Origin: a virus
UHGV virus genome: UHGV-1579991
DNA: 64,000 nt
Direction: 5' to 3' (one strand)
The notes below the pieces were generated by a model that was not told the DNA's origin, searched no databases, and saw only the letters and a list, made by a program, of their open reading frames with translations. The position numbers and the translations under genes are program-made. Shown in pieces: positions 23,709 through 61,592 of this stretch; positions within the stretch are counted from its first letter, which is position 1, and every line of letters begins with the position of its first letter.

Positions 23709-24677
23709 TTAGTCGAGCCAATGCAGCATATTCTCGTCATCAAAACGAGATTCAAGCTCTGCTGTCGTAATGAATGCAAGTTTGTTCAGCATATACTGCT
23801 GCAATTCACGTTTGCGAATTGATTCAAATCTGACAAATGTTTCAGGCACTTCAAGCTCACCATCAGCATCATATGTTGCAACAGAAGTGTCAACATTGAT
23901 GTTGTGAATCTTTTCGCATGACACTCTGTACTTTGTCAAGTCAAAGCCTGGTTTGCCATCATTACGAGGCAACAAACTCCACATAGCAAAGTTTTCTACA
24001 GCTTCAGCAACAAATGCAAGAGCTTCATGCATGTCAACACTGTAGTCTTCTATAAGATTTGCGTATAGTGTAGCTACAATGTTTTGATGTGTCGCAAGGT
24101 CAAGCTTATTGCTAATTGCATGCTCAAAAATGTCTTTGAAGTTCTCATACATAGTAAAGTTCTTCAAGACAAGTCGCTGTAATGCTGTGCGGTCTTCAAG
24201 AGCTGCATATGCAGTGTCATCATGCATTGCAGAAGCCGCTGCTTGCTGAGCATTCAGTACAACTGATACGTCATGAATGACAAATTTTGAGTCAATCAGC
24301 ACTGACACTGCAATAAACGGTGCAACAGACTTTGAGTCTTTTTGAGCAAAGTCAATCTCAATGTGAAATGAATTGCCTTGTCGCGATTGCACCGAATGAT
24401 AAATTTCATAGTCATTGACGTACAGCTTAAAGTGCTGCTTAATTGCGTCATTGACTGCATTGATGCCCGCATCATAAATGTTGCCAATCACTTCAAGTGC
24501 ACGAGTGTTAAGTGTATGTGCAAGAAATGCTACATTTTGATAGTTGACGAGTTTGTGAGACAAATCAGTCGTGTTGTTAAGTTGTCTCATCAAATCATGC
24601 AGTGCATCATATGACAGTTTGATGTCATCTAACGTGTTGCACTCATGTATTGCGTTAATTTGCTGTGTCAGAGTCAT
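23709..24677 (-). CDS. hypothetical protein
   Basis: 322 aa ORF. Confidence 0.5.
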   Translation of the reverse strand: MTLTQQINAIHECNTLDDIKLSYDALHDLMRQLNNTTDLSHKLVNYQNVAFLAHTLNTRALEVIGNIYDAGINAVNDAIKQHFKLYVNDYEIYHSVQSRQGNSFHIEIDFAQKDSKSVAPFIAVSVLIDSKFVIHDVSVVLNAQQAAASAMHDDTAYAALEDRTALQRLVLKNFTMYENFKDIFEHAISNKLDLATHQNIVATLYANLIEDYSVDMHEALAFVAEAVENFAMWSLLPRNDGKPGFDLTKYRVSCEKIHNINVDTSVATYDADGELEVPETFVRFESIRKRELQQYMLNKLAFITTAELESRFDDENMLHWLD

Positions 24678-24921
24678 TTTGTGTATGTTCTTGATTTGCT
24701 TGTTCTGCTAAGTTGTTTATGAATGCTTTGAGCAATTCAATGATTGTTGTTAGTAACTGAATTTGAAACAATACAATGCTAAACATGACAATTGCTACAA
24801 TGCAAATTGAAATGAAGAGCATATTGATGTCAAATTTGTTTGCTATCAATGTTTGCAGCCAAGTTATGACTGCAAACATTGAAATCAGTATGAATACTTT
24901 GTGCTGTGATAACGATTTCAT
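24655..24921 (-). CDS. hypothetical small membrane protein
   Basis: 88 aa; two hydrophobic segments (VFILISMFAVITWL, ICIVAIVMFSIVLF). Confidence 0.4.
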   Translation of the reverse strand: MKSLSQHKVFILISMFAVITWLQTLIANKFDINMLFISICIVAIVMFSIVLFQIQLLTTIIELLKAFINNLAEQANQEHTQNDSDTAN

Positions 24922-25900: not shown

Positions 25901-26437
25901 TCATTTGTAGTGTTCAGTTATGTATGCAGAGCATAGCAAAACAACTGATACACAAATGACAATGTATGTTGGCGTAATCAGTGTCACATTGAATAACAAT
26001 GCAGTCAATGCGCATACTGTTACTGATATGAGTGTTGAAATGAATGCAGCATATGCACTAAACTTGCTTTTTAACAAACGTTCGATGATATATGTTGTCG
26101 CAACAGACAGTAAGACTACACATGCAAATAACAACAGCCAAGTTGAGTTTGACGTTGTCGGCTCTTCAATAAACTGCAATGTTGCTGATGGCACTTCAAT
26201 ATTGTTTGATGCTTGTAATGTGCCACTTGCAGCATCTGCGTACATCACAGTTAAGTAGTGTCGTTGAATTTCTGCTGCGTCTACTTTATAGATTCTATGC
26301 CATGCAACATCTGATATGATGTATGTTGCAGCCATAAATGCAGCAATGCATAGCATATAAGAGCCAAACTTTGCAATCGGTTTCATGCAAATATATTTTT
26401 GTTTGTATATGTACATAAAAGAGCAAGTTCTCCACAT
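25901..26437 (-). CDS. hypothetical multi-pass membrane protein
   Basis: 178 aa with several hydrophobic stretches. Confidence 0.45.
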   Translation of the reverse strand: MWRTCSFMYIYKQKYICMKPIAKFGSYMLCIAAFMAATYIISDVAWHRIYKVDAAEIQRHYLTVMYADAASGTLQASNNIEVPSATLQFIEEPTTSNSTWLLLFACVVLLSVATTYIIERLLKSKFSAYAAFISTLISVTVCALTALLFNVTLITPTYIVICVSVVLLCSAYITEHYK

Positions 26438-39452: not shown

Positions 39453-42400
39453 TCAATTACATGCTGAATGTCCGCAGTTGGTGCATCGAACACAGCCGTC
39501 AAACTTGACCATGTCACCACCGCATTCAGGACACTTTGCATACATCTTTGAGCCATCTTGAATGTGTAGTTTCAATGCGCGACCAATTGCTTTGCAGAAT
39601 GTGCCAACAGATGCAAAGCTTTTTGCAGTTTGGTCGACAATTTCACCAAGGTCGATGCCATTGCGAAGCATCGTTGAGTACAGTCGAGTAATTGTTTGCT
39701 GCTCATCTGAACCAAGACGTTCTGAGATATTGTCATAGTGTTGCAAGAATGACAAATTATCACCAAGCTTGTAGTGCTTCTTATCAGTCTTTGTGATTGT
39801 CGTTTGTTCAATGCCTTGCAACTTGTCAAATTCGTCTTTGTCAAGTTCAAATGCAAAGATTTCATAGGGTCGACCATCATCACAACCTACAAGAATACAC
39901 CACTTACGCTTATACACTGATACACAATACACTGCAGCAGGCAATACAGGTTTTCGTTTTGAGCGATGACCAGACTGCAAGACATGCGACTTATCCTTAG
40001 ACTGCTTATCATCTTTTACGAGAACACCTGCACGTGAGCCATCTCGATAAATTGTGCAACCCTTGCAGCCAGATTTCCATGCAGTCAGATAAATTTCACG
40101 AACAAGCTCTTTTGTTGCAGAGTTTGGAATATTGACTGTTACAGAAATTGATGAGTCAATGTACTTTTGCAACGCGCCTTGCAGTTTAACCTTGCCAATC
40201 CAGTCAACATCTTCAGTAGTTGCCTTATAGTATGGTGATTGAACAAGCAATTCATCAATGACTGCTTGCGAAGCATTTGACAACCAAGCTTTGATACGAG
40301 ACATTTCTGCTTCTGACCATTCAATGCCAGTATCTTTGACAAGGGTGAATTTGTCATCACCAAGCTGCACTCGTTTGCAAATCCACTGCATCAATGGGTA
40401 GTGAACTACAGCGTATTCAATGAACTTGTCACCAGTAGTCTCATCAATGAAGTTGATGTCTGCTTCATTATCAACTGCAGTAGGCTTTCGACGACGTTTG
40501 TGCAGTGGCATAAAAACAGGTTCAATGCCAGAAGTTGTCTGAGTCATCAAAGCTGTGGTGCCAGTTGGCGCAATTGTTGTTGTGTTGATGTTTCGACGAC
40601 CAAATTGTTGATAAGTTGTGATGTGCTCATCATCAATCAGTTCAGATAACATACGCTGAATGAACTTTGACTGCACATCTGTGTCATAGTCGAATATTGC
40701 AAATGAGCCACGAATCTCTGCCAAGTCAATTGACGCTTCATAAGTCGCCTTTACAAGCCATTGTTGCATAGTGACTGCGAAGTCAATTGACTCTTGTGAA
40801 CCATAGCGCAAGCCAAGCATTGCCATTGCATCGCCAAGTGCAAGAAAGCCCATGCCATATCGACGAGTATTTGTCAATTTGTCATAGACTTTATGCCACA
40901 AGTCAAGCTCAGTTTTCTTAATGTCAAATGATTCTTTGTCTGATTCAACCTTTGCAATGATTCGTTGAACTGCTTCAATTTCAAGCTGCACAAGGTCATC
41001 CATGATGACTGCACAGTCATATGTATCTTTGTAGAATGCTTCAAAGTCAAATGATGCATCAGCAGTCCAAGGATTAAGCACATATGCAGTCAAATTGCGA
41101 TGTGATAAAATGCAGCTTGCATATGCTGCAAGAGGCTGTTCACCGCACTGCCTGTTGTTTACAAATACTTGCATATGTCTGTCATTTGTATCATTGACAG
41201 CGTCAAATGACCCTACAAAAAAGTTGTGATAATCATCTACAGTGCCATTATACACATCTTCTACACCATCAAGTTCAACAGTGTGTACCCTATGATTGTA
41301 GTAATCTGCAAACTGCTTAAACTTTCTGTATGACGCATGAATAGCAGCGTCAACATTGTTAGATTTGCATTCATTTGCAAATTCTTCATAATTTGGTCGT
41401 TTGCCAAGTTTTTGCTTTGCTGCAGTATATACAAGCACTTGTTCTTTAGACCATTTTGCTTGCTGAGCTGCGTGGCCGCATTCGGCAGAACAATATGCAA
41501 CTTCTCTATAAAACCAGTGCGCCCAAAATTCAGAGCCGCAATGTTCGCAAATACGTTTAACATACACTTGTTTGTCAACAAATTTAGTGTCATAGCCCAT
41601 ATTGCGAACTTTAATTGCTGTTGCTATGCATCTGCTATCAATGCCAACTAAATCAGGATATTTAACATTAGCGCGCGTTGCACAATGACTTAAAAATGCA
41701 TCAATAGAGCCAAATGTTTCTACTAATTTATTGTACCTGTAGCCAGACCATGCAACAGTATTATTGCCTGGCGCATAGCGCATATAGTATTCTAATTCTT
41801 TGCGACTAAGGCCTCTTCCAACTTTTGCAGTGCATTGCGTAACATAGTCTACAATTGATTGCACAGTTGTATCAATATCATATCTGCCATTACGTTCACC
41901 AGAAGTAGATGCACTCATTTTAGCAGAATACTGTGCAAAACGTTCTGCATTTGCTTTAATTTTGTATATTGGATTGTTAGTGCCTCTACGTTCAAGTGCA
42001 TGTAATGCATCATGCTCTTTTTTGCTTAGTACTTGTAAGTTATTTGGGTCATTGTTTAATGAATTGCCATCGATATGATGCACTACTGTGTGTGTAGCAT
42101 CAAACTGTTCAGCATGACAGTATTCTGCTATTAAACGATGCTCAAACTTATATACACCATTATTCAACACTGCATAATATGGTGCAGATTTGCTATTTGT
42201 TTGATAGCTAAGCACTTCATCAAATGAACATTGTTGTCTTGCAATAATTGCTAAGCTATCACCATGCTGTAATTGTCGTGCTTCTTTGTATGTGCCATCT
42301 GTTAACTTAAACTTGTGATTACCTGTGCAACGAATAACATCACCAGAATCAAGTGTAACTTTGTATATTTGCACATTTGAGCCTGTTTTGCGTGGATGCC

Positions 42401-43439
42401 GCATTTTGCGTACAACTACATTATTGTTGTCATCATAGCAATACACATTAACATCATCGCCAATATCTGCAAGTTCACGTATTGTCATTGTTTGTCTGCC
42501 ATCAGCAAGCATAACTTTAGTGCTGCCAACAATGCATGGATTTGTTGAGCGCTCTTCATACATTTTACCGTATGCTTTCGAGTTCGACTCTTCCATAATG
42601 CGGTCCCAAAAGAACACGCCGGGTTCTGCAGATGCCCATACATTGTCAACAATTTTGTCAAATAATGCTTTTGCATCTGATGTCTTATGCAGCTCTTGGC
42701 CATCAGAGCCACGCCAAATATGTTCAAACTGCTGTTCTGCAAGCACTGCACGCATAAATGCATCAGTAAGCTTGATGGAAATGTTTGCACCTGTGATTTT
42801 TGTCAAGTCTTTTTTTGCGTCAATGAACTTATCTGCATCAGGATGCTCAATTGACAATGACAACATCAATGCGCCACGCCTGCCATTTTGTGCAACTTCT
42901 TTTGTCGATGTTGAAAAGCGTTCCATAAATGACACGACACCAGACGTCGTAATAGCACTGTTATGTACTTCTACGCCTTCTGGGCGAATATGCGACAAAT
43001 CATGGCCAACACCACCACGACGTTTCATCAACTGAACTTGCTCTTCATCTGTTTTGAAGATGCCGCCATATGAATCTGCATCATTGCCTATTACATAGCA
43101 ATTTGACATTGATGTGTAACCGCCAAGACCGATACCAGCCATTGGAGAACCACCAAGTACAAATCGCTTAAATGGCTCAAGCAAATATGCAAGTCGCTCT
43201 TTTGACAATACACGTTTGCCTGTCTGTTCTTCAAATTGTGATTCTATACGGTCAAATTCATTGACCCAGCGCTCATGCATATCAGACAATGAGTGTTCAT
43301 ACAAATTGTCTTTGTCATGATGCAAGTATTTTGACATGCATATGTCAGCAGCCATTGAGTCGCCCGTAAATTCATGCGTCAGTGTAGTGTGCACTTCAGC
43401 ATATTCAGGCGACCCAATTTGAATGGGACGTTTTGTCAT
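39453..43439 (-). CDS. nrdJ: ribonucleotide reductase, class II (NrdJ)-like, intein-containing precursor
   Basis: Track ORF 39453..43499; likely start at ATG 43439 (MTKRPIQIG). Exteins reconstitute the RNR active-site motif NP-CGEQPL...AYASC; C-terminal Cys-rich zinc-ribbon-like tail. Class assignment is tentative. Confidence 0.7.
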   Translation of the reverse strand: MTKRPIQIGSPEYAEVHTTLTHEFTGDSMAADICMSKYLHHDKDNLYEHSLSDMHERWVNEFDRIESQFEEQTGKRVLSKERLAYLLEPFKRFVLGGSPMAGIGLGGYTSMSNCYVIGNDADSYGGIFKTDEEQVQLMKRRGGVGHDLSHIRPEGVEVHNSAITTSGVVSFMERFSTSTKEVAQNGRRGALMLSLSIEHPDADKFIDAKKDLTKITGANISIKLTDAFMRAVLAEQQFEHIWRGSDGQELHKTSDAKALFDKIVDNVWASAEPGVFFWDRIMEESNSKAYGKMYEERSTNPCIVGSTKVMLADGRQTMTIRELADIGDDVNVYCYDDNNNVVVRKMRHPRKTGSNVQIYKVTLDSGDVIRCTGNHKFKLTDGTYKEARQLQHGDSLAIIARQQCSFDEVLSYQTNSKSAPYYAVLNNGVYKFEHRLIAEYCHAEQFDATHTVVHHIDGNSLNNDPNNLQVLSKKEHDALHALERRGTNNPIYKIKANAERFAQYSAKMSASTSGERNGRYDIDTTVQSIVDYVTQCTAKVGRGLSRKELEYYMRYAPGNNTVAWSGYRYNKLVETFGSIDAFLSHCATRANVKYPDLVGIDSRCIATAIKVRNMGYDTKFVDKQVYVKRICEHCGSEFWAHWFYREVAYCSAECGHAAQQAKWSKEQVLVYTAAKQKLGKRPNYEEFANECKSNNVDAAIHASYRKFKQFADYYNHRVHTVELDGVEDVYNGTVDDYHNFFVGSFDAVNDTNDRHMQVFVNNRQCGEQPLAAYASCILSHRNLTAYVLNPWTADASFDFEAFYKDTYDCAVIMDDLVQLEIEAVQRIIAKVESDKESFDIKKTELDLWHKVYDKLTNTRRYGMGFLALGDAMAMLGLRYGSQESIDFAVTMQQWLVKATYEASIDLAEIRGSFAIFDYDTDVQSKFIQRMLSELIDDEHITTYQQFGRRNINTTTIAPTGTTALMTQTTSGIEPVFMPLHKRRRKPTAVDNEADINFIDETTGDKFIEYAVVHYPLMQWICKRVQLGDDKFTLVKDTGIEWSEAEMSRIKAWLSNASQAVIDELLVQSPYYKATTEDVDWIGKVKLQGALQKYIDSSISVTVNIPNSATKELVREIYLTAWKSGCKGCTIYRDGSRAGVLVKDDKQSKDKSHVLQSGHRSKRKPVLPAAVYCVSVYKRKWCILVGCDDGRPYEIFAFELDKDEFDKLQGIEQTTITKTDKKHYKLGDNLSFLQHYDNISERLGSDEQQTITRLYSTMLRNGIDLGEIVDQTAKSFASVGTFCKAIGRALKLHIQDGSKMYAKCPECGGDMVKFDGCVRCTNCGHSACN
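41148..42536 (-). mobile_element. intein (Hint domain plus HNH homing-endonuclease domain) inside the RNR gene
   Basis: In-frame 463-aa insertion from Cys at 42536 (CIVGSTKVMLADG) to ...VFVNNRQ at 41148, followed by the +1 Cys of CGEQPL. Contains HNH motif HHIDGNSLNNDPNNLQVLSKKEHDALH and intein block-F-like VYNGTVDDYHNFFVG. Confidence 0.75.
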
Positions 43440-43504
43440 TGTAACAGTGCATTTAAGTGTTTTAACAGTTTTATGTATAAATTGTACAACAATGGGCAAA
43501 ATTT

Positions 43505-44348: not shown

Positions 44349-44540
44349 TGTAGTAGAGGTTAAAATATATTGATATATAATAATTATACTACAAAGTTGC
44401 CAGATTTGCACCAGAATGTATAACAAGTTTGCATAAAAAAGTTTTTACATAAAATGGCAAACAAAAAACAAGCAGACTGCAATTGCAGCCTGCTTGCGCC
44501 AAAACAGAAAAAGATGATAACTTAACCCAAAAACCTAACT

Positions 44541-46082
44541 TTATCTACTTGCAGAATCTCGCATTGAAATCATAACTTGCTCTTGAATTGATATAGGTAT
44601 GATGTTGAAGTCTGACACTTCAGCAACGTCATCAACATCAAGAGCTCTCAATGTATCTGTGTCACAGCAAGTCACAATGATTGACTTGCGAACATACTCA
44701 TCAGCAACATTCCACAGCAGCTGACAAATTGCCCTATTATCAAGACAAATTTCATTGACTGTGCGAACAAGACTATACCATGCAGTCACATTATTGCGCT
44801 TCAGAGTTTCAAGCATATATCGTGCAAGCCCAAAACCTGCTACATATGACCCAGTCTGCTTATTGAATGACTCAATTGCGTATGCATCAAACAATGCTTC
44901 TGTCATCAAAGGCATTGCTGCAGTCATTCTGTAGTATCGATAGTCAACACATACAATCAACCAGTTAACATATGAATTGACTGCATATGCATGTGCCTTG
45001 AAGCCAAGGTCATTCAAGATTGTGCAGATGGCATTGTAAGTCGATTCATCAGCATTGCCAAAGTTTGCAAGCAGCTTAACTTTAAGAATGTCTTCGCCAA
45101 TTGCATTTCTTGTAGCAGTGAATGATGGCATGCATGCAAAGCTTCTTTTGCAGATGTCTGTGATAAGTTGCTGTGCGTCATTTACAAGCTGTCTTGCAGC
45201 TTCAGCACGTTTTTCAGACTGTGCTTGATATTTTGGCCGCAACTGTGATGAGCCAGTTGCAGCGCCATATCGCATAGCAGCTTGCCAGTCCTTGAGATTA
45301 TTTTGCAATTCACGAACATAGTCTGCAGCAACAATTGCAGATGGAGTTCTTTGTTGCTCGATTAGTTTGTTGATGTTTGCAAGCACATCTGATGCAAACA
45401 TATCTTTTGGCTTGACTCTTGCAATTTCAGCAAGCACTGCCGGTACACGAGCAATACCGCGAGGTTCATTTGAAACTACTACTGCATAGTCTACAAGCGC
45501 CTCACATACAAGCTGCTCATCAACAAAGTACTCAGGATTCTGCACAGCATCTTCAACAACTGCAATCAATGTTGCTCTACGATTGCTGTCAGGTTTGTTG
45601 CCAAACAGCTCAATGTACAGCATGTCTGCTTGCTGATCTGTCATTGAACCTGCGATGTCAATTGTCTTTGCAAGTTTGTTAAGCAGTTCAGCTTGCTTAC
45701 TTGACAATCTGACTTTGTATGACGACTCTACGGCTTCTTTGACTGCTTTGAGTTTTCTGTCAATGTCAAGGCTGCTTTCATTGACATTCATGCCGACAAT
45801 GCCTGCAGCATCAGTATTAAATTGCTCAACAGTTTCTGCTGCAGTTATTGGCAATGACACAATAGATTGTTTTGCATTTGCTGCAAGCTGATTGAGTCGA
45901 GTGACTGCTTCAGAATCTTGCGCAACTGCAAGATATCTTACGCACAGCTCATCAATCTGTGAAAGATAACTTTGGGTCATGTTTATTGAAAAATTGTTGT
46001 TTCTTGACGAATAGCTGTTGGATGCAATTTGCGGAAACACTTCGACATTTCTAAGTTCCGATGATGACAACAATGTTTCCAT
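44541..46082 (-). CDS. hypothetical protein
   Basis: 513 aa ORF. Confidence 0.5.
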   Translation of the reverse strand: METLLSSSELRNVEVFPQIASNSYSSRNNNFSINMTQSYLSQIDELCVRYLAVAQDSEAVTRLNQLAANAKQSIVSLPITAAETVEQFNTDAAGIVGMNVNESSLDIDRKLKAVKEAVESSYKVRLSSKQAELLNKLAKTIDIAGSMTDQQADMLYIELFGNKPDSNRRATLIAVVEDAVQNPEYFVDEQLVCEALVDYAVVVSNEPRGIARVPAVLAEIARVKPKDMFASDVLANINKLIEQQRTPSAIVAADYVRELQNNLKDWQAAMRYGAATGSSQLRPKYQAQSEKRAEAARQLVNDAQQLITDICKRSFACMPSFTATRNAIGEDILKVKLLANFGNADESTYNAICTILNDLGFKAHAYAVNSYVNWLIVCVDYRYYRMTAAMPLMTEALFDAYAIESFNKQTGSYVAGFGLARYMLETLKRNNVTAWYSLVRTVNEICLDNRAICQLLWNVADEYVRKSIIVTCCDTDTLRALDVDDVAEVSDFNIIPISIQEQVMISMRDSASR

Positions 46083-46094
46083 GTGATATGTATT

Positions 46095-46700
46095 TTAGCC
46101 TGCAAACTCATTGATTTTTAGGTCATTTGTCGTAACTGCAAAGCAATCAATGTGCAGCCATGTGACGTCTTTTTCTATACGACAACGATGCGGCAATTCA
46201 TCTGCATGTTCTTTAATGAGCTTTCGCATTTCTGCAGCAGTCATATCTGCAGACTGACAATCAATTGCTGCACCATTACAATGAGCACTCAAATAAAGCT
46301 TGTTTGCAAGTGTCTTGTCTTTTGGGATTTGACAGATATTGCATCGTAAGCCCCGTTGACTCATTGTGCCACCTTTAGCCCAATTATTGACACACAACGG
46401 AACTTTCAGCACAAACTTGCGTAATGCAAGCAGCAAGTCAAGCAGTTCTCTGTCAAGAAACTGCCAAGAATTATCGCCAAACTTGTCATAGCAATGTTTG
46501 CATACAAGTTCTTTTATGCTGAAGTACTGCTTAAGCTCTGCAATAACAGAGTCTCTTGAAGCACTTGCAATATCTGCAATGTTAGTTATGCTGTTGTTGC
46601 TGTTCATGTTGTCTGTCAAGTTCTTTGCATTTGCACTCATTTCGTTCACCCATGACTTTTGTAATGCCTGCAGTTGCAAACATGCCTGCGACTGCACCAA
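46095..46700 (-). CDS. putative endolysin, peptidase M15-like (zinc D-Ala-D-Ala carboxypeptidase / L-Ala-D-Glu peptidase fold)
   Basis: 201 aa; SxHxxGxAxD motif (LSAHCNGAAIDC) and downstream His (WLHID); true start may be an internal Met. Overlaps the holin-like ORF. Confidence 0.6.
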   Translation of the reverse strand: MVQSQACLQLQALQKSWVNEMSANAKNLTDNMNSNNSITNIADIASASRDSVIAELKQYFSIKELVCKHCYDKFGDNSWQFLDRELLDLLLALRKFVLKVPLCVNNWAKGGTMSQRGLRCNICQIPKDKTLANKLYLSAHCNGAAIDCQSADMTAAEMRKLIKEHADELPHRCRIEKDVTWLHIDCFAVTTNDLKINEFAG

Positions 46701-46890
46701 TTATGCCTGCAACTGCGCCAAGCTGTTCAGTTGTTTTACCAGTTGCTACGACTTCCCATATGATAGCAAAACAAACAACGAGCAATATAAAGATGCCTAT
46801 AAAAGTCACAGCTACAACAAAAAATGATTTGACTGACACACCTGTGTCATTCGTCACTAAGTTGCGCATTGTAAATTTGTTGTTATTCAT
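46582..46890 (-). CDS. holin-like small membrane protein
   Basis: 102 aa; two hydrophobic helices (FFVVAVTFIGIFILLVVCFAIIW, AVAGIIGAVAGMFATAGI) and a charged C-terminus; 3' end overlaps the endolysin start. Confidence 0.45.
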   Translation of the reverse strand: MNNNKFTMRNLVTNDTGVSVKSFFVVAVTFIGIFILLVVCFAIIWEVVATGKTTEQLGAVAGIIGAVAGMFATAGITKVMGERNECKCKELDRQHEQQQQHN

Positions 46891-47050
46891 AGGGATGGCG
46901 AACTGTACACATTGTACACATTGTACACACTTATATTGTATGTGTTTGTATATGTATTTTAACAGGCATTAGCAAACAATACAAAAATGCAAAATGAAAG
47001 TGGCTCAGATGTATATCTGGGCCACTTTCATTTGTCATATACGTTGTCTA

Positions 47051-48706
47051 TTATGCAAGCAATGTTTGCAGCATGTAGCAGCCTTTTGCATATGCGACAA
47101 TTGCTTTTGCAGGGTTGTTCTTGATGTATGCAGGCAACTTGAGCCAAATCAATGCCACAAGCACTTTCTGTCGCAGCGTCAAATCAAGTTCATCAATGTT
47201 GTAGCCAATGACTTTTGCTCTGACGTCGCCATCAACATAATCGAATTGCTGATATGCTGACTGATTGAATACATCATAGCCAGACAAACCATATGCAAAC
47301 TTTGCAATGTCATAATCGATGTCACCTGTCATCTTAACGTCACCAAAGTAGCCTCTGGGGTCAATGAACATGCATTTTGATGAATCTGCACTGAACATTG
47401 TATTTGACGTATTCGGGTCACCATGAATGAATGACCAATTTTCGCATGCATAGTCAATTGAATCTTCTTGTGACAAGAAGAATCTTAACTTGCTCATCAG
47501 TTCATCGAATGGCATCAATGCAATACCATTGAATGATTCGATGCCTGCTACAAGTGACTTGACTTCAGCATATCTTGCAATAGTAGTCTCAATGTACTCT
47601 TTGCGCATTGCGTCAATCATTTGCTGTCTGCTAACTGGCCAAATCTCGTCATTGTCAAGATTGCTTGCATGCAATTCATTGATTGACTGCTTGAATGTCG
47701 TCATGCAGCCACGTGCAATTGTAGCATATCTACGCTCAATATCAACTTTGTTGAGGAACTGATGTACAGTCACTCCGTTAATTTTCGACATTTTGATGAA
47801 GTCTTCACCAGTTTCAAATATCGATGGAATGACTGTCGATTCTGCATTCATAGCATGACGATACCATTCTTGTTCTTTCTGAATGAGTGCCAAACCACGA
47901 GCATTTGTAGCAGATTTCGTAACAATATCGCCATCAATGCTAATGCTATTGAAATACCGTACTTCATTATCACGTGCAGCCTTGACTGCTTCACTGACAA
48001 ATGCTCCGCGTTCGCCATATGAATGACAGCCAGCAATTTCATATCTGTCTACAAATGTAACGTTGGTCATTAAATCAGCAAAATCAGCATTGTTATCATT
48101 ATGCTGCATATCAATGACATTGTTATGAAACGCTGCAGGTACATAATATGCGCCAACAATGCCACTATGATATGTAGACTCATACAAATGGTCGAGCACA
48201 TATGCTTCTGCATCTGCATAAGACCCTACTTTGTAGAATGCATCAGTAGGAATGAGATGCAGTCTGCAATCAATGTCATTTGACGTGCAGCAAGTTATGC
48301 AGCCAGTTTTGAATTTGTCAAGTGGCAATTTAATGTCACCAAGCCATACGTCAGACCAGTGATAGAATACATTGCAGCCACCAATGTTGTTAGCAACATA
48401 CAGTGCTACATCTGCGCATGCTTTTGCTGAGCCATCAGCTTTGTCATGCACAATAGTTGACAATTTGATATCTGGTGCAAATGCTGCAGCATGTTCATGA
48501 ATCATTGCTGCATGAGTGTCATTTGCACATGCAACAATGACTTCATCAAACTGTCGAGCATAGGATGTCAAAATTTTTGCGAGCACGGTTTGTTTGCCCG
48601 CATTTACAAGAGTTTTAGGGATGTAATTGTTGCCAGTCATTGTTGACATGCGAGTGCCCAAACCACATGCAATGATTGCTAACACATTTGGATATTGATG
48701 AGACAT
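47051..48706 (-). CDS. bifunctional sugar-1-phosphate nucleotidyltransferase / kinase (APH or choline-kinase-like) fusion
   Basis: Start placed at internal Met (MSHQYPNVLAIIACGLGTRM). N-terminal NTP-transferase G-x-G-T-R motif; C-terminal kinase Brenner motif FIHGDPNTSN and FIDPRG. Confidence 0.6.
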   Translation of the reverse strand: MSHQYPNVLAIIACGLGTRMSTMTGNNYIPKTLVNAGKQTVLAKILTSYARQFDEVIVACANDTHAAMIHEHAAAFAPDIKLSTIVHDKADGSAKACADVALYVANNIGGCNVFYHWSDVWLGDIKLPLDKFKTGCITCCTSNDIDCRLHLIPTDAFYKVGSYADAEAYVLDHLYESTYHSGIVGAYYVPAAFHNNVIDMQHNDNNADFADLMTNVTFVDRYEIAGCHSYGERGAFVSEAVKAARDNEVRYFNSISIDGDIVTKSATNARGLALIQKEQEWYRHAMNAESTVIPSIFETGEDFIKMSKINGVTVHQFLNKVDIERRYATIARGCMTTFKQSINELHASNLDNDEIWPVSRQQMIDAMRKEYIETTIARYAEVKSLVAGIESFNGIALMPFDELMSKLRFFLSQEDSIDYACENWSFIHGDPNTSNTMFSADSSKCMFIDPRGYFGDVKMTGDIDYDIAKFAYGLSGYDVFNQSAYQQFDYVDGDVRAKVIGYNIDELDLTLRQKVLVALIWLKLPAYIKNNPAKAIVAYAKGCYMLQTLLA

Positions 48707-48749
48707 TGTGTAGTGTTGTTTATATGAGAATATTGTACAATATGCATTG

Positions 48750-49007
48750 CTATTTTGCAAGATGACAATGCTTACGCCATACTGCAATTTCAACATCTGT
48801 AGCAAAATCAAAGTGCAAGCCATGCAATTGTTTCATGCCATATTGACGTCTTGCAATATACTTATTGCCAACTCGCTCAACAACGGAACCAATTTCTACT
48901 ACATTTTTAGAATGTCGTGGCTCATGTAATGGCACTCTGAATATGTATCTGCCATCTAATGTTGACATTATGTCACCATTATCAATTATGCCTGTTTGCC
49001 TGCTCAT
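48750..49007 (-). CDS. hypothetical protein
   Basis: 85 aa ORF. Confidence 0.35.
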   Translation of the reverse strand: MSRQTGIIDNGDIMSTLDGRYIFRVPLHEPRHSKNVVEIGSVVERVGNKYIARRQYGMKQLHGLHFDFATDVEIAVWRKHCHLAK

Positions 49008-49722: not shown

Positions 49723-50178
49723 TTAAAATTTGCCATCTGCTACTTGAAAGCATCGATAGCCAAGCTCTCGCCATTTAGCGACCATGGAATCGCGGTCTTC
49801 AAGCACAAATGCAATTTGTTGCAGTTCGTCTTCAGACAATGCTTCTACAAGCAATTCAGGTTTGACAAGCGTATCATGACGTTTATCACCATCTTTTCGC
49901 ATAAGAATTTGCGGATTAACGATTCTGTAATCTGTATGCTGTGCAAGCCAAACTTCTGTCATTTGTCTGCAGCTTTCACGACGGCCTGTGCAGAATATGA
50001 TTCTATAGCCAACTTGCTGCAAATCGCAAAGCAAGTCAAGCACAGTCATAATAGGCTTGTCTTCATAACAGTGTGCATAAAATGCATCCCAATCTTTGTT
50101 TTGCTGTTGAAGATATTTTAGACGGTCGCCAACTTTTGAAATTGTTCCGTCAATGTCGCATATGATGATATTTGCCAT
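49723..50178 (-). CDS. HAD-superfamily phosphatase
   Basis: 151 aa; HAD motif I IICDIDGTIS at the N-terminus, motif II-like FCTGRRE, motif III/IV-like RKDGDKRHD. Confidence 0.55.
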   Translation of the reverse strand: MANIIICDIDGTISKVGDRLKYLQQQNKDWDAFYAHCYEDKPIMTVLDLLCDLQQVGYRIIFCTGRRESCRQMTEVWLAQHTDYRIVNPQILMRKDGDKRHDTLVKPELLVEALSEDELQQIAFVLEDRDSMVAKWRELGYRCFQVADGKF

Positions 50179-52659: not shown

Positions 52660-53382
52660 TTAGTTATCATGCACAGCAGCTATATAACGGCCTTGCGAAT
52701 CCAAATGAATCGCAGTTTGCATTGTAATTTCTGGCTGCGCTTTGTTGTGTTGTTGCTCTGCATCATATTCACGTCGCAACCCACCATTCGGATGACATAG
52801 GTAAAACCTATCAAAATCTGTACCCAACTGTTCAGCGACAGACAGCATAATATTGTCGCCTACAAGCTGAGATGCTAGCAGAGAATTTGTTGGGATTCGT
52901 GGATTGCGTGAGTCCTCGTCAATTGCTGGCAATGATACAAGCAAGTCTGCCCAAGCATTCATATCAGTGACCTTGCCACCGGCAAAGTTGATGCCAATGA
53001 TTTGACAATTCGGTGCAAGCAATTCACGATGTTCACGAAGATATGTCATTGCAGTTGCAAGTTCAGATGTGTTGCCAGTTTTGCTGAATGCTACAATAAC
53101 ATCGTTGTTTCGAATCATGCCAAAGTCACCATGCATTGCATGCACTGCATCAAAGAATGATGCGTTCAATGACAAGCAATAACATGTTGCAGCAAGTTTT
53201 TCACAGCAATGCACATTTTTGCCGATGCCAGTGAACAACACTTTGCCATCAGACTTCAATGCATTTGCAATGATATCTGCTGCAATGCCAAGAACATCAT
53301 ATTGCGCATCTGAAATGTTGTTGTGCCATGCTACAAGCGATTCAACTGATGCAGCAATGCCTTTGTGTACAAGTGTTTTCAT
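52660..53382 (-). CDS. SIS-domain sugar-phosphate isomerase (KpsF/GutQ arabinose-5-phosphate isomerase-like)
   Basis: 240 aa; SIS signatures VLFTGIGKN, HAMHGDFGMI and FSKTGNTSEL. Confidence 0.65.
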   Translation of the reverse strand: MKTLVHKGIAASVESLVAWHNNISDAQYDVLGIAADIIANALKSDGKVLFTGIGKNVHCCEKLAATCYCLSLNASFFDAVHAMHGDFGMIRNNDVIVAFSKTGNTSELATAMTYLREHRELLAPNCQIIGINFAGGKVTDMNAWADLLVSLPAIDEDSRNPRIPTNSLLASQLVGDNIMLSVAEQLGTDFDRFYLCHPNGGLRREYDAEQQHNKAQPEITMQTAIHLDSQGRYIAAVHDN

Positions 53383-53400: not shown

Positions 53401-54081
53401 TCAAAAAAACTTAAGTTTTGATAGCATTTCAGTGTCTTGTTCTGTGTTGATGCCAAGCTCTTGCATGACATCAAGCAATGCAGACCATAATTGCTCATAT
53501 GATTTGCCGCTGTTCATAACAACAGCGTCAACAAACAACTCGTCGATATATTGTTCACTTGAATGATTGATGCTTTGCTTGACATCGTCATTGATAATTT
53601 TAATGAGTTTGAAGCCTCTTGAACGCAATGCGGTCGCTTCATTTGGATATCGACAATCGCCAACACAAATAAGAGCTTCATTATGACAATTGTCAAGTCG
53701 ATACAGCAAACTGTTTACAAAGAAGTCTTCACCATACAGTTTCTTGAGCGCATCTGAAACATCAAGATGCACATTGCGAATCGATGAACCTGCAAACTCT
53801 ACAAAGTGTTTCTGTTTGAATGCATTGTTATGCAAGTCTTGCAAATTGTAGCCCAGTGTACTTGCAATAAATGCTTTCAGTGGCTTTGCAAAGCACTCAT
53901 ATGCAAGATTGCAGCCACATGACCAGTATGGATTCGCTTCAATTTGCTGTAAAGTTGATGTGTAAATGCCATCAACTACAGTGAACTTGCATTTAGTCAT
54001 GACTCGAATCATCGCCCAAGCCAAATCTTTGCCTACGCCTGCATGACCAACAAGCGCAATTTTTGTTATGTCATCATTCAT
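53401..54081 (-). CDS. deoxynucleoside monophosphate kinase (T4 gp1-like)
   Basis: 226 aa; P-loop-like LVGHAGVGKD and VGDCRYPNE motif resembling the RFxNE element of phage dNMP kinases. Confidence 0.5.
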   Translation of the reverse strand: MNDDITKIALVGHAGVGKDLAWAMIRVMTKCKFTVVDGIYTSTLQQIEANPYWSCGCNLAYECFAKPLKAFIASTLGYNLQDLHNNAFKQKHFVEFAGSSIRNVHLDVSDALKKLYGEDFFVNSLLYRLDNCHNEALICVGDCRYPNEATALRSRGFKLIKIINDDVKQSINHSSEQYIDELFVDAVVMNSGKSYEQLWSALLDVMQELGINTEQDTEMLSKLKFF

Positions 54082-54567: not shown

Positions 54568-55140
54568 TTAAAATTTGGATAGACTCGTAGTATCAAGCGA
54601 TGCAATTGAATCAATGCGCAAAGAATCTGCTATAGGTGCGCAATCATCAATTGGGTGACTTGCAGGCTTAACTTTGAGCATATACATTCTGCAATTGCCA
54701 ATATCTATAAGGGAACCAGAACGTGTCATATAATCACAGCCCAAAATGCCAACGACTTCATGACCAAGTGCTTTGCTAAGCTGAACTAAAATAGGTGAAA
54801 TATCATCAATAAACATATCCAACTGTACAGAGCCATTTGCGATAGTAATATCTGCGTCTATTGCATGAGATACTTGAAGAGCCCCTGTAACATATGATAA
54901 TCGCTTAACTGAACGCTCTTTGCCAACCATGTCATGAGTAGCAACAAATGTGCTATCAATCAATGACAATGACGCGCCAGTATCAAGCAAAAGCCATGCA
55001 TCGACACCATTGACATTTGCATGCACAAATGGCAGGCTCTTCAAAACAATTGGTGACTGTGATTGCTGCAATGCTTCATTGCACATTGTCAGCGTCATAA
55101 TCGCAAGTAGCGATATGAGAAACAATTTGAATGCTTTCAT
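54568..55140 (-). CDS. secreted retropepsin-like aspartic protease
   Basis: 190 aa; N-terminal signal-peptide-like hydrophobic segment (LFLISLLAIMTLTM), catalytic D-T-G-A-S (LLLDTGASLSLIDS) and downstream GILGCDYM motif. Confidence 0.5.
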   Translation of the reverse strand: MKAFKLFLISLLAIMTLTMCNEALQQSQSPIVLKSLPFVHANVNGVDAWLLLDTGASLSLIDSTFVATHDMVGKERSVKRLSYVTGALQVSHAIDADITIANGSVQLDMFIDDISPILVQLSKALGHEVVGILGCDYMTRSGSLIDIGNCRMYMLKVKPASHPIDDCAPIADSLRIDSIASLDTTSLSKF

Positions 55141-57354: not shown

Positions 57355-58425
57355 TCATTGTTGTTTATGCCAGCCATATGATGCCTGACCAGCATCATAC
57401 ACTTCTACAAAACCATGGTCGTACATAAAATCTTCATTACGAGTGCCCTTGCCACCATTAGTGCCAAGAATACGGTCTGCACCATGCATAAGTAGCATGT
57501 TATTTGTGACATGTTGCTTTGTCAGCATATTGAACCAGTGTTTGCTATATGACAAACCAAGACCATCAAAGCCCAGCTTTGTGTACACACCACCGTCAAA
57601 CTTGCTTAAATCACAATATGATAACACAGATTCAGGGTCATATGTCTTGATAAAGTGCTTAAAGATTCGTTCAGCACCACCAACAACTTTGGTTGCTGCA
57701 CAAAGACGTAGCAATTCATATTGATAGCGCTTATTGTATCGTGGACGACCAAATGTCATAAGTTGATGAATGACATAACCACCAAGCAACTCAAGTGGAT
57801 GACCTTCAATCAACGCAAGATTGATAAAATTGCCTGAGCACTTGCCTTGCAAATGATGTTCAATCAAAAATTGATTTGCAGTATACTTGTCAATTTCAAC
57901 AACTTTAAGCTTGCGAGCATATACAATCTTTGATTTGTCTACGATTTGATGCTTGATGTGATTGATAACTTTCTTGGCGTCATCCCAATCCCACACATGA
58001 ATACAATGAAAGCCTGCAGCTTTTGCAATGTCTGTTTTCTTTGCATGAACATCACAAGGCAAATGTGCATCTTTTGCATCATGCATAAACAAGTGCTCAA
58101 ATGAATGCGTACTGTTATGCGAAAATGCAGGATTGATGTTAATGACAATATTGTCATGTCGAAAATCGAAGACTTCATCACCAATGACAAAGTTGCGCTC
58201 AAAATCTATACCGACATGTTTGAGCAACACTTGATGCCACACGTCTTTATAGGCTGATTCAAGCTTGCTTAGCTCATCACAGTTTGCAATGTTTTTGTAA
58301 CGTTGAATAGCAGCATCAAAGTCAAGATTGACTTCAGCGTAGTCTGCATTTTTATCATAGTGAAATTTTGAGCTCATGCGTATAATTTTGTGTATATAAT
58401 TATTGTACAACATGCAAATGCACAT
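57355..58425 (-). CDS. homing-endonuclease-like paralog (nuclease-like domain N-terminal)
   Basis: 356 aa; N-terminal IVININPAFSHN...GFHCIHVWDWDD nuclease-like domain and C-terminal FVEVYDAGQ tail homologous to the family VYDCGH motif. Confidence 0.5.
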   Translation of the reverse strand: MCICMLYNNYIHKIIRMSSKFHYDKNADYAEVNLDFDAAIQRYKNIANCDELSKLESAYKDVWHQVLLKHVGIDFERNFVIGDEVFDFRHDNIVININPAFSHNSTHSFEHLFMHDAKDAHLPCDVHAKKTDIAKAAGFHCIHVWDWDDAKKVINHIKHQIVDKSKIVYARKLKVVEIDKYTANQFLIEHHLQGKCSGNFINLALIEGHPLELLGGYVIHQLMTFGRPRYNKRYQYELLRLCAATKVVGGAERIFKHFIKTYDPESVLSYCDLSKFDGGVYTKLGFDGLGLSYSKHWFNMLTKQHVTNNMLLMHGADRILGTNGGKGTRNEDFMYDHGFVEVYDAGQASYGWHKQQ

Positions 58426-58468: not shown

Positions 58469-59530
58469 TTATTTTGTATTGCTACGCGTCATTGTTAAAT
58501 GACCGCAATCATACACATCAACTTCTGTTTTGCCAAGCATACATGTATGACAATTTATTTTGAAATCTGCTGCAGTGTAATCAGGATAGTTTAGCGGAGA
58601 TTCTTTTGACAAATCAATTTCAATTGTGTCAGTAGTTTTAAGTTGTTCAGTGCCTGCAATGATATCTGCAATAAGATTGATAACTTCTTCTTGTGAATCC
58701 CAATCAAACACAGTTATGCAACGATAGCCTGCATCAAGTGCAAGTTTTGTTTTGTTGTAATGGTATTGAGCACCAATAACATTGTTGTCTTTTGCTCGAC
58801 CAGTTAAATATGCAAAACTAACAGTGCAGTTGTGCGTAACTGTTGGACAAATTTCTATAAGTAACTTTGCAGGCTCATACTGCAAATCATATGTTTGATT
58901 ATTGATGTTAAACTCGTACTGTGTATCAATTGCCAACTGTCGTAATAACGCATCATGCCACATCATATTACATTTAGAAATTGTTTTGGATGACAATCTG
59001 CATTGCGGCAATTGACATGGCCAATCTACGCCGTACATTTGTTGTGTTGTTTGACGCATTTTGTTAACATCACCAAAATGATTGCCATATCGATGCTCTT
59101 TGGTTTTAAGCGACTGCTCAATATTGACATTGCCTACACAACCATAACGTTCAAGTTTTGTTGCAGCAGTTTTGCTAACATCACCATGCCCATTGCCAAA
59201 TTTGGCGACTTTAGTTGCAAGTATTTTATGACTTGGGCCAAATGCATTGCCATACAATTCTTGTTTAGTCGCAAGCATTTTGTCGATATTACAACCAGCG
59301 CCATAAGTGTTATGCATAGTTTGCATACGTTGTCGAATAAATTTTGGCACAGATAAAGGACTTTCTACACCATATTTGCGTAAGCAACTGATTTTGCATG
59401 CGTACTTTTGCTTGATGACAGAATGTGCATTTCGACGTCCTATGTAAGTGTTTTCTGATGTAGCAGCAAGCTCTGCATCTCTAAGAACTTCAAGTGCAGC
59501 AATTCGTGCTTCAATTTCTTCAGATGTCAT
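58469..59530 (-). CDS. homing-endonuclease-like paralog
   Basis: 353 aa; coiled-coil N-terminus (EIEARIAALEVLRD), YG-x-x-x-G-D repeats, LIEICPTVTHN...GYRCITVFDWD nuclease-like domain, VYDCGH tail. Confidence 0.55.
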   Translation of the reverse strand: MTSEEIEARIAALEVLRDAELAATSENTYIGRRNAHSVIKQKYACKISCLRKYGVESPLSVPKFIRQRMQTMHNTYGAGCNIDKMLATKQELYGNAFGPSHKILATKVAKFGNGHGDVSKTAATKLERYGCVGNVNIEQSLKTKEHRYGNHFGDVNKMRQTTQQMYGVDWPCQLPQCRLSSKTISKCNMMWHDALLRQLAIDTQYEFNINNQTYDLQYEPAKLLIEICPTVTHNCTVSFAYLTGRAKDNNVIGAQYHYNKTKLALDAGYRCITVFDWDSQEEVINLIADIIAGTEQLKTTDTIEIDLSKESPLNYPDYTAADFKINCHTCMLGKTEVDVYDCGHLTMTRSNTK

Positions 59531-59876: not shown

Positions 59877-61592
59877 TCAAATCCAGCCGTAGTCGCTGTG
59901 GATAGCGAAGGTGAGGTAAGCCAACTCGGGATACATACCCGTCTCCGCGAGAGCGTAATCCGACTCAATCAGCAACTTAGGCGCTGCTGTACCTTCGGCT
60001 GTTAATTCCACACTTGATGCAAGGTCATATGGCATGAATACGCATCCCTGGTTGACATTCTCTACGTCAACGCCGTCAGCAGTTTTGTTCGTACGAAGAA
60101 CGAGAACAGTGTTATCGTTCAGCGGCTGCTTAGGATTGCAATAGATTTTAATGCCAGCAAGGTCACCTGCATAATACAGGTTCTTGTTGTCCTGTACCAG
60201 CGTATTGTCAAGAGCTGCAACAAAGTTCTTCTGAGCCTTAATTGCAACCAAGGCAATCGTATTGACCACGGCAGCATCACCGGCACCGAAACGCGACAGG
60301 TTGCCAATGATTGCCGAAGCAGCCAGGATACGAGTTGCGATACGAGCCTGACGGGTAATCTGGTTCTCAGCCGAGCTGTTCGATTCAGCGTTCGGAACCA
60401 TACCGAATTCAGCCGTACGGTCTACACCCATCTTGTCGACAAATGCAGGAGCCTGGAATTCTGAGAATGCCTTGGCGGTTGAACCAGCGTAGCCAATGTA
60501 CAAGTTCAGGTTGTAGCCCTGAGCAGCCAACAGCTGAGCATGTGTCGTAACACCAAGTGCACGCATGCGCTTCAGACCATTGTCGTTAATTGACTGCGTG
60601 ATTTCATTCTGCATTGCATTCTTGATGATTGCAACTGCATCCAAACCGCGAGCACGGAGGTCCTTAACCTGTCGACGAGTCAGAGCACCCCAAGTCTGGT
60701 ACGTCTTAACTTCGATAGCCTTTGAGAAGGTGCGGAGCTCCAGCATGTTCGGGTTGCCAGCCTCAGCCTCAGAACGAGACATTGGGTTGCCGTCAATGTC
60801 ATCCATTGCAGCGAAGCCGTGGATGTGTTCGTCACCAGCCGAAACCAGGTCGAACATAACCTCAGTCATGCCAGTCAGCATGTCAGTTACAGCACCTGCA
60901 GCGTCAACCGAGTAGATTTTCGATGCAGCCATTGCAACATCAGCCAACGACTTGTCAGGAGCAACTGTCATTGCGCCACCTGCGCCTACAGTGTACACGC
61001 CCTCATTGCGAACTACGAGGTAGCCTGCAACACGCGATACCTGTACAAACGTTACCTTGGCAGCAAGCTCACCGGCAGCTGAACCGCCGATGTACAGAAC
61101 TTGACCCTTCTTGAGGCCATGAACCATTGTCTGCGAAGCAACATTGTACAACTCCTTCCACTTGATGAGGAAGTAACGAGGACCCTTGGCTGCATTCAAC
61201 TTGCCACCGCCATATACGTAGTCTACATAGTCCAGCTGAACCAGCGGGCTGTAAACAGGAATGGTCGGGAGCAGGTCGAACAGAATCGTGTTGGCTGCGA
61301 TGTTCATGTTCAGAGCCAGAACATTGGCAGCTACATCTATTGAACCACGCTTACGCGACGGGTCATGGAACTGTGCTTGCGTACCTGGGTCAGCAGGGAA
61401 AGCGACCGGACCTACGCCATTGAGATTCTGCGAATACGTCGACTCAAACGACTCGTTCATATACTGAACGTTCTGAGCGATTGATGCGAGCAGATACTTC
61501 TTAGCGGGCGAGAGCTTGGAGTCAAACGACTCATCAAGAACAGGACCCCACTTTTTCAGCAATGCATCAATCTGTGTACGTTTTGCGTTCAT
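59877..61592 (-). CDS. putative major capsid protein
   Basis: 571 aa ORF in a locally GC-richer stretch with distinct codon usage (highly expressed gene signature, judged by eye), followed by a strong intrinsic terminator; no catalytic motifs. Functional call is inference, not a recognised motif. Confidence 0.4.
   Translation of the reverse strand: MNAKRTQIDALLKKWGPVLDESFDSKLSPAKKYLLASIAQNVQYMNESFESTYSQNLNGVGPVAFPADPGTQAQFHDPSRKRGSIDVAANVLALNMNIAANTILFDLLPTIPVYSPLVQLDYVDYVYGGGKLNAAKGPRYFLIKWKELYNVASQTMVHGLKKGQVLYIGGSAAGELAAKVTFVQVSRVAGYLVVRNEGVYTVGAGGAMTVAPDKSLADVAMAASKIYSVDAAGAVTDMLTGMTEVMFDLVSAGDEHIHGFAAMDDIDGNPMSRSEAEAGNPNMLELRTFSKAIEVKTYQTWGALTRRQVKDLRARGLDAVAIIKNAMQNEITQSINDNGLKRMRALGVTTHAQLLAAQGYNLNLYIGYAGSTAKAFSEFQAPAFVDKMGVDRTAEFGMVPNAESNSSAENQITRQARIATRILAASAIIGNLSRFGAGDAAVVNTIALVAIKAQKNFVAALDNTLVQDNKNLYYAGDLAGIKIYCNPKQPLNDNTVLVLRTNKTADGVDVENVNQGCVFMPYDLASSVELTAEGTAAPKLLIESDYALAETGMYPELAYLTFAIHSDYGWI

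Follow-up and report, generated by a model that had tools for sequence, protein, structure and literature searches.

Among the described systems closest to the locus considered here are the class II holins and the small zinc peptidase endolysins. Class II holins, for example S21 68 of lambdoid phage 21, have two transmembrane (TM) domains with both termini in the cytoplasm (N-in/C-in). LysECD7 (T5 EndoT5-type, 8q2g) and Listeria Ply500/Ply118 are small single-domain zinc peptidase endolysins, which belong to Pfam subfamilies (M15_4, VanY) other than that of the enzyme described below. Here we analyze a gene pair on the minus strand at positions 46095-46890 of a 64-kb stretch (the window) out of the ~175-181 kb virus genome UHGV-1579991. 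It consists of a gene for a holin-like protein of 102 amino acids (aa) with two TM helices (2-TM protein) and a gene for an M15-type peptidase, and it is quite probably the lysis module of a ~175-180 kb phage whose hosts are probably gut Bacteroidota. The holin-endolysin mechanism here is the textbook scheme and holds nothing mechanistically new. What the locus adds is modest, namely a label by context for an unnamed 2-TM family, a possible second metal site in the endolysin, and a conserved third gene. Lysis genes of Bacteroidota phages, including the abundant gut crAss-like phages and jumbo phages, are poorly annotated, and a literature search turned up no study specific to this endolysin family or to the 2-TM family. 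Such assignments are useful for phage genome annotation and for the search for enzymes against Bacteroidota cell walls.

According to PHROGs, the peptidase belongs to family 894, 'endolysin' (E 2.5e-16, 60.7 bits, residues 43-186 of the 201-aa open reading frame, ORF). Over ~85% of the query it is 40-44% identical to annotated endolysins and peptidases of the same family from crAss-like phages cr115_1 (gp04) and cr6_1, Bacteroides phage C3_41T2LP ('peptidase'), and phage csAssE-Sib ('L-Ala D-Glu endopeptidase'). This group, whose hosts are gut Bacteroidota, has in common with the window protein an invariant H, D, H, D set and a core of ~150 aa; unlike its members, the window protein carries a poorly conserved N-terminal extension of 30-38 aa that overlaps the upstream gene. 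A search of 5.8 billion proteins returned 593 homologues, a few of which carry a precomputed PF08291 (Peptidase_M15_3) assignment. The SxHxxGxAxD signature reported in the preliminary description is present as SAHCNGAAID, and H120, D127, H163, and D165 are invariant in 121 of 121 sequences (the query and its best 120 homologues). Conservation extends to R96 (120/121), R99, E156, and most of the SxHxxGxAxD motif. From the order of the motifs, H120, D127, and H163 are proposed as zinc ligands and D165 as a catalytic acid.

The AlphaFold2 (AF2) model of the endolysin has a predicted local distance difference test score (pLDDT) of 91.7. In a Foldseek search against PDB its best match is the Streptomyces zinc DD-peptidase 1lbu (probability 0.96), with Hedgehog N-terminal domains, endolysin LysECD7, and VanY-like LdcB among the further matches. 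As for viral models, the best matches in BFVD are clear and are to 'Peptidase M15/M15A' proteins, with E-values from 3.5e-9 to 1e-3. On the evidence of the model, the window peptidase has the Hedgehog/DD-peptidase (LAS/M15) fold. It has this fold and the H-x6-D...H zinc motif in common with PF08291, MEROPS M15A, and the Streptomyces albus G D-Ala-D-Ala carboxypeptidase (1lbu). It differs from them, however, in escaping the Pfam model, in its low similarity to 1lbu (TM-score 0.46, identity 16%), and in an extra conserved Cys/His/Cys/Cys cluster. LysECD7 and Ply500/Ply118 likewise share the fold and the SxHxxGxAxD-type signature with it, although LysECD7, which ranks third in the PDB fold search, is a weak match (E 0.39; TM-score for the query, TMq, 0.36). 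One further viral match is an observation in its own right: the second-best BFVD hit, A0A7M1RQN9 (uncultured phage cr53_1, 501 aa, TMq 0.74, root-mean-square deviation 13.6, 505 aligned columns), is annotated as 'Phosphoesterase', and the alignment hints that this crAss-like phage protein may contain an M15-like domain.

Several results weigh against the assignment. The hidden Markov model search for Peptidase_M15 families that had been suggested as a check failed for the protein itself, with neither Pfam nor NCBIfam giving an M15 match even at E 0.1; PDB sequence and profile searches returned chance matches only, and the fold matches in PDB are all weak, the best of them having E 0.033 and TMq 0.46. 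PF08291 is matched by only 2 of 30 aligned relatives (best E 2e-6). Taken by its homologues, the window peptidase is thus an endolysin of the annotated family PHROG 894 that lies below the threshold of the Pfam M15_3 model. The locus highlights an M15-type endolysin sub-family that this model largely misses and that may carry a second Cys/His metal site. The residues in question, C47, H49, C100, and C103, disappear jointly, in part or completely, from two divergent homologues (P0115 and the csAssE-Sib homologue), and their pattern makes a second, structural metal site possible. To our knowledge, no such site has been described in M15 endolysins.

A peptidase of this type could also act in the virion or at entry, in which case its place beside a membrane protein gene would be a coincidence. 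M15A-like domains do occur in BFVD matches that are large tail or baseplate proteins (e.g., gp5-like OB-fold proteins, and proteins of up to ~1190 aa), and a crAss-like homologue is encoded beside tail-fibre and structural genes. The window peptidase, however, is small and single-domain with no virion-attachment domain, its relatives are annotated as endolysin, and its gene is located in a metabolic/replication region rather than with the structural genes. Moreover, sister lineages fill the slot between the 2-TM gene and the third gene of the unit (gene3) with a stand-alone T4-type lysozyme. A virion or entry role is therefore very improbable.

Before its function is considered, the 102-aa ORF has to be a gene. 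It is short and overlaps its neighbour, and the mechanical ORF list contains antisense ORFs of similar length, so that a chance ORF or a functionless overprinted frame might be suspected. Its core (aa 8-82), however, compared with a 72%-identical homologue in contig L007, has proportions of nonsynonymous and synonymous differences (pN and pS) of 0.115 and 0.60, i.e., a dN/dS ratio of ~0.10, and the synonymous sites are close to saturation. Among 1.84 billion representatives, a profile search found 114 related clusters (38 with E<=1e-10), which have in common the conserved pattern LI.NNTGVSSK.FFLV...(TM1)...TDL.G.A..IGAVA.LF..AG.TK.WSEK.E followed by a variable charged tail, and the structure model is a confident helical hairpin. 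The chance-ORF explanation is effectively refuted, and the substitution pattern indicates a real gene under purifying selection.

The two-helix membrane protein of the preliminary description is borne out by two Kyte-Doolittle segments and by two helices in the AF2 model. The latter, built with 40 family members, consists of two helices (residues 17-50 and 57-101) with a 6-residue loop between them, at a mean pLDDT of 80. TM2 is Gly/Ala-rich, and its small residues give it a Gly/Ala zipper-like face, while the C-terminal tail differs between family members in both length and sequence. Family-wide, the charge is +1.5 in the N-terminal flank, −1.5 in the loop, and +1.1 after TM2 (positive-inside), a distribution that implies an N-in/C-in hairpin of the class II holin type. 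Holins are commonly described as small, with one or more TM domains and a hydrophilic, charged C-terminus, a description that applies to the 102-aa protein. In comparison with S21 68-type holins, it is of the same size class (~70-100 aa) and likewise forms two TM helices connected by a short periplasmic loop, with small residues abundant in TM2 and a charged C-terminal tail in the cytoplasm; its gene, too, stands directly 5' of the endolysin gene. There is, however, no sequence homology to S21, and S21 is a pinholin that works with a signal-anchor-release (SAR) endolysin, whereas the window endolysin has no SAR segment and a large-hole holin would be required. The protein thus fits the class II definition as far as sequence can show, and at the same time stands outside every described holin family.

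A conserved internal methionine, M8 (46869; the sequence runs M1-NNNKFT-M8), offers an alternative start of the holin-like gene. It is kept in the near clade, while family-wide the position is merely hydrophobic (F/L/I/M); a methionine there together with an upstream extension occurs in 8 of 108 family members, all in the sub-clade of the window. A dual-start holin/antiholin arrangement is thus weakly supported.

The holin call rests on genomic context, since relatives of the 2-TM protein lie directly upstream of three non-homologous endolysin types. In the window clade (the window, L001-L003, and L007) and in L015 the 2-TM gene is directly 5' of the M15 peptidase gene, and in L016 it is 5' of a PF00959 T4-type lysozyme gene (E 3e-46). 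L088 has the order TM+coiled-coil protein, 2-TM protein, GH24 lysozyme. The same order is found in L101, an isolate genome of Prevotella sp. HCN-7019 in which the cassette apparently belongs to a prophage, followed there by a u-spanin-like lipoprotein with a C-terminal TM segment. L097, the human faecal phage scaffold MT836190, has the four-gene order of L101 including the u-spanin-like lipoprotein, with GH108+PG_binding_3 (E 7.5e-25) as the enzyme. The 2-TM proteins of these last two loci are, respectively, 62% identical to the A6 query and 47% identical to the window protein, and as in the window their genes lie directly upstream of the endolysin gene. Their endolysins, however, are a GH24 lysozyme and a GH108 muramidase, in contrast to the M15 enzyme of the window, and the TM+coiled-coil protein before the pair and the u-spanin-like lipoprotein after it are both missing from the window, which has the soluble gene3 product instead. 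A fixed position beside exchanged M15, GH24, and GH108 enzymes is, judged from these gene orders, the classic signature of a holin. The holin-endolysin pairing proposed in the preliminary description is supported by this context together with PHROG 894 and the M15 fold. As for its remark that the arrangement is typical, the linkage to an endolysin gene stands, but the overlap of the two genes is not family-wide. A holin role of the 102-aa protein is accordingly likely, if somewhat less so than the reading of the pair as a lysis module.

Database searches do not name the family, and this counts against the call. Pfam gives no holin family for the 102-aa protein (Phage_holin_3_6 reaches 17 bits against a cut-off of 28.4), NCBIfam gives no match, PHROGs returns only unnamed families, for 3 of 40 family members, and the BFVD fold search with the holin-like model finds no annotated holin and a single uncharacterised relative. 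The family is thus unnamed in Pfam, PHROGs, and NCBIfam, which is the only mildly new point of the locus; the window and its relatives supply a context-based functional label for this widespread group (114 clusters at 50% identity).

These gaps also favour an explanation in which the peptidase does serve as endolysin while another protein forms the holes; the 2-TM protein would then act as an antiholin or holin regulator, in superinfection exclusion, or as some other membrane protein, with the holin encoded elsewhere, e.g., at 24655-24921 or outside the window. Most IMG/VR members of the family lie among unrelated small genes. In 78 of 80 IMG/VR 2-TM loci, mostly contigs of 90-100 kb, no M15-profile, GH24-seed, or GH108-seed match was found within 2.5 kb (positive controls of the M15 profile scan worked; no generic domain scan was run). 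The GH24 seed matches L088 only and the GH108 seed none of them, the immediate downstream gene is usually an unrelated small ORF, and in L012 a family member is directly followed by a gene3 homologue with no endolysin gene between. In addition, the TM+coiled-coil protein stands just upstream in L097 and L101, and alone before the M15 peptidase in C3_41T2LP, and could be the real holin there. The window also contains other small TM ORFs. Among these, two small multi-TM ORFs at 24655-24921 (minus strand, 88 aa) and 25901-26437 (minus strand, 178 aa) have no PHROG match and could be alternative membrane effector or holin candidates. On the other hand, the window holds no homologue of the TM+coiled-coil protein, which leaves the 2-TM gene as the sole membrane-protein gene of a terminator-bounded unit, and the family stays directly 5' of three unrelated endolysin types. 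Since holins unlinked to the endolysin gene are well known (T4 t and e), the solitary copies are not a strong argument against a holin. An effector other than a hole-former is thus unlikely, although it is the most probable of the alternatives.

Two other families recur in the lysis cassettes of Bacteroidota phages. The first is the TM+coiled-coil protein, which has a single TM segment and a C-terminus that contains Cys; the second, the u-spanin-like protein, combines a lipobox at the N-terminus with a TM segment at the C-terminus and in L049 follows a 2-TM family member. Members of each are detectably homologous among themselves; their coordinates are 2112-2504 and 2983-3327 in L004, 3057-3485 and 4472-5065 in L097, 2077-2586 and 3224-3634 in L101, and 2894-3295 in L049. 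The described relatives of the window peptidase differ from the window on this point too. Upstream of the cr115_1 endolysin there is a 63-aa ORF with no TM segment, and in C3_41T2LP a one-TM coiled-coil protein is encoded upstream of the peptidase and a u-spanin-like protein downstream.

With the holin-endolysin reading, the steps follow the standard model. The 102-aa protein would form an N-in/C-in helical hairpin (class II topology) in the inner membrane, build up late, and at a set time open holes big enough for the endolysin. The latter would be a soluble, fully folded cytoplasmic enzyme of ~170-181 aa, a zinc metallopeptidase with the LAS/M15 fold related to Pfam Peptidase_M15_3, which would bind zinc via H120, D127, and H163 and cleave a peptide bond of the peptidoglycan, either in the stem or in the cross-link. 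Scanning the endolysin N-terminus revealed no signal or SAR segment: the first 38 residues are hydrophilic, some of them being disordered in the model, and the sole hydrophobic window (aa 66-84) belongs to the confidently modelled core, mostly to helix 64-77. Because of this, the enzyme should stay cytoplasmic and need a hole-forming holin, and a pinholin/SAR-endolysin system is ruled out. Hole formation, its timing, the bond cleaved, and the true start codons are what we infer. The overlap of 26-59 nucleotides (nt) and the position between two terminator-like hairpins suggest that the two genes are probably co-transcribed and may be translationally coupled.

The extent of this overlap depends on the endolysin start. 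The longest mechanical ORF (46095-46700, 201 aa) begins at TTG 46700, which with the coordinates of the preliminary description would give an overlap of 119 nt. Peptidase homologues, however, are ~150 aa long and begin near residue 30-38 of the window protein, and because the stretch before their starts is poorly conserved, hydrophilic, and partly disordered in the model, TTG 46700 is an unlikely start by these comparisons. The overlap itself stands, but at 59 nt with ATG 46640 (181 aa) or 26 nt with ATG 46607 (170 aa), the latter aligning with a methionine in the L007 protein. Shine-Dalgarno motifs were rejected as evidence for either; as ~45 window genes have none, the start cannot be chosen from the sequence. 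The N-terminal extension of the endolysin has a pN of 0.35-0.50 against L007, and its residues 1-12 have pLDDT <50. Gene finders call the 2-TM/M15 overlap in the window, L001-L003, and L007. In L015 the M15 gene, which encodes no N-terminal extension, begins 23 nt past the 2-TM gene, and in L088 and L101 the 2-TM gene overlaps the GH24 lysozyme gene by 38 nt. An overlap of the holin-like and endolysin genes is thus common, but not a family-wide or defining feature. Coordinates of all features of the locus are given in Table 1.

Table 1. Features of the lysis locus and its surroundings (positions in the window)
Feature	Position	Strand	Evidence or remark
Holin-like gene, 102 aa, ATG start	46582..46890	-	ORF, dN/dS, AF2, family context
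TM1 core FFVVAVTFIGIFILLVVCFAIIW, aa 23-45	46756..46824	-	Kyte-Doolittle maximum 3.17 (19-residue windows); AF2 pLDDT ~87-94 in helix 17-50
TM2 LGAVAGIIGAVAGMFATAGIT, aa 57-77	46660..46722	-	Kyte-Doolittle maximum 1.83 (19-residue windows); inside AF2 helix 57-101
C-terminal tail KVMGERNECKCKELDRQHEQQQQHN and stop codon, strongly charged, cytoplasmic by predicted topology	46582..46659	-	3' part overlaps endolysin 5' end
M15-type (LAS, PF08291-related) zinc peptidase, predicted endolysin, 181 aa from ATG 46640	46095..46640	-	PHROG 894, homologues, AF2, Foldseek
Endolysin N-terminal extension, aa 1-38, clade-specific, poorly conserved, hydrophilic	46527..46640	-	Absent from ~150-aa homologues and L015
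SAHCNGAAID motif with H120 and D127	46260..46289	-	H120 and D127 invariant in 121/121
H163-I-D165, proposed third zinc ligand and catalytic acid	46146..46154	-	Invariant in 121/121
C47-K-H49, half of putative second metal site	46494..46502	-	C/H/C/C pattern kept in 115/121
C100-N-I-C103, other half of putative second metal site	46332..46343	-	C/H/C/C pattern kept in 115/121
Gene3, 513 aa as longest ORF	44541..46082	-	Likely start M35 at 45980 (479 aa)
Three tandem copies of TGTGTACAA (9-bp repeat) in the leader of the holin-like gene	46903..46930	-	One copy in L003, none in L007
Terminator-like hairpin with T-rich tail	46992..47033	-	−26 kcal/mol, z −7.6; between upstream NTP-transferase/kinase gene (NTP, nucleoside triphosphate) and lysis pair
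Terminator-like hairpin with T-run, closing the three-gene unit	44468..44497	-	13-bp stem, 7 G-C pairs, tail TTTTTGTTTG
All genes around the pair		-	

The unit between the two hairpins comprises the 2-TM gene, the peptidase gene, and gene3. At the position equivalent to the upstream hairpin (46992-47033), L007 has a hairpin of other sequence. A scan for sigma-70 promoters gave no signal above the shuffled background. The 9-bp tandem repeat was considered as a regulatory site and rejected, being unique to this spot and variable in copy number among near-identical relatives; TGTGTACAA is a variable microsatellite rather than a conserved site and is probably not essential.

As for gene3, a sequence scan of its product shows no TM segment or signal peptide, and there is no informative match in Pfam, PHROG, NCBIfam, or PDB. 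A word-index search of the 5.8 billion proteins yields only 3 close clusters of homologues. Its position after the endolysin gene is kept in L007, L015, and L016, and in L012 (3389-5419) the gene3 homologue is joined at its N-terminus to a 2H phosphoesterase / anti-CBASS Acb1-like domain (Pfam E ~1e-7). Gene3 is a conserved neighbour whose role as a lysis gene is only putative. Since it follows the holin-like and endolysin genes in four lineages of this jumbo-phage clade and is fused to a 2H/Acb1-like phosphoesterase in a fifth, it could be a third lysis component (a spanin substitute with the outer membrane as its target, or a lysis regulator), with the 2-TM protein founding an undescribed holin family of Bacteroidota phages. 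This extended scheme is decidedly doubtful.

In agreement with the preliminary description, which had recognised no spanin nearby, homologue searches and lipobox/TM scans find none in the 64-kb window, and this absence weighs against the lysis-module reading. With phmmer (E<=1), no window ORF is related to the u-spanin-like or TM+coiled-coil families of L004, L049, L097, and L101, and none of the minus-strand ORFs combines a lipobox with a C-terminal TM segment. One i-spanin candidate, the ORF at 13027-13422 with an N-terminal TM segment and a Q-rich part, was rejected: it lies in the replication module by a clamp-loader-like gene and has no lipoprotein partner.

Regarding the host, the peptidase type had been called compatible with a Gram-negative bacterium, which is supported and can be narrowed. 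The region 44500-49000 has no match to GenBank phages at the DNA level. The major capsid protein (59877-61592, minus strand) shares 34-37% identity with its counterparts in several large phages, namely Chryseobacterium phage MA9V-1/-2, Sphingomonas phage PAU, and Tenacibaculum phages PTm1, PTm5, and pT24, and 28% identity with Prevotella Lak phage capsids. Among these relatives, Sphingomonas phage PAU has a host outside Bacteroidota. Shine-Dalgarno motifs are essentially absent from the 25 nt 5' of ~45 minus-strand starts across the window, and the leaders are A/C-rich, which is consistent with translation initiation of the Bacteroidota type. Based on the capsid relatives, the endolysin relatives, the lack of Shine-Dalgarno motifs, and the Prevotella genome that carries the 2-TM family, a Bacteroidota host is probable. 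The window reads cleanly with the standard bacterial code. Among the related gut-phage contigs, L005, L008, and many of L017-L096 have in-frame TAG/TGA inside conserved genes, a pattern that indicates stop-codon recoding there.

Just upstream of the lysis pair lies a sugar/nucleotide-metabolism cluster (47051-48823, 49723-50178, 52660-53382, and 53401-54081, all on the minus strand). One member joins an NTP-transferase to a kinase-like domain, which is APH-like in the relative L012, and the others are a HAD_PNKP phosphatase, a SIS-domain protein (PHROG 'arabinose 5-phosphate isomerase'), and a deoxynucleoside monophosphate kinase. Together these genes resemble a nucleotide-sugar pathway, which might serve DNA hypermodification by analogy with the arabinosylated DNA of phage RB69. 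The ribonucleotide reductase large subunit (39453-43499, minus strand) contains an intein/HNH endonuclease-like insertion and is 1348 aa long, in comparison with 1073 aa in near-identical relatives. The ORF at 54568-55140 (minus strand, 190 aa) combines a hydrophobic lipoprotein-like N-terminus with a retropepsin-type aspartyl protease domain (DTGA; Pfam Asp_protease_2, E 1.8e-6). Finally, a homing/HNH endonuclease gene (57355-58425, minus strand) is located near the capsid gene, with one ORF (58469-59530) between them.

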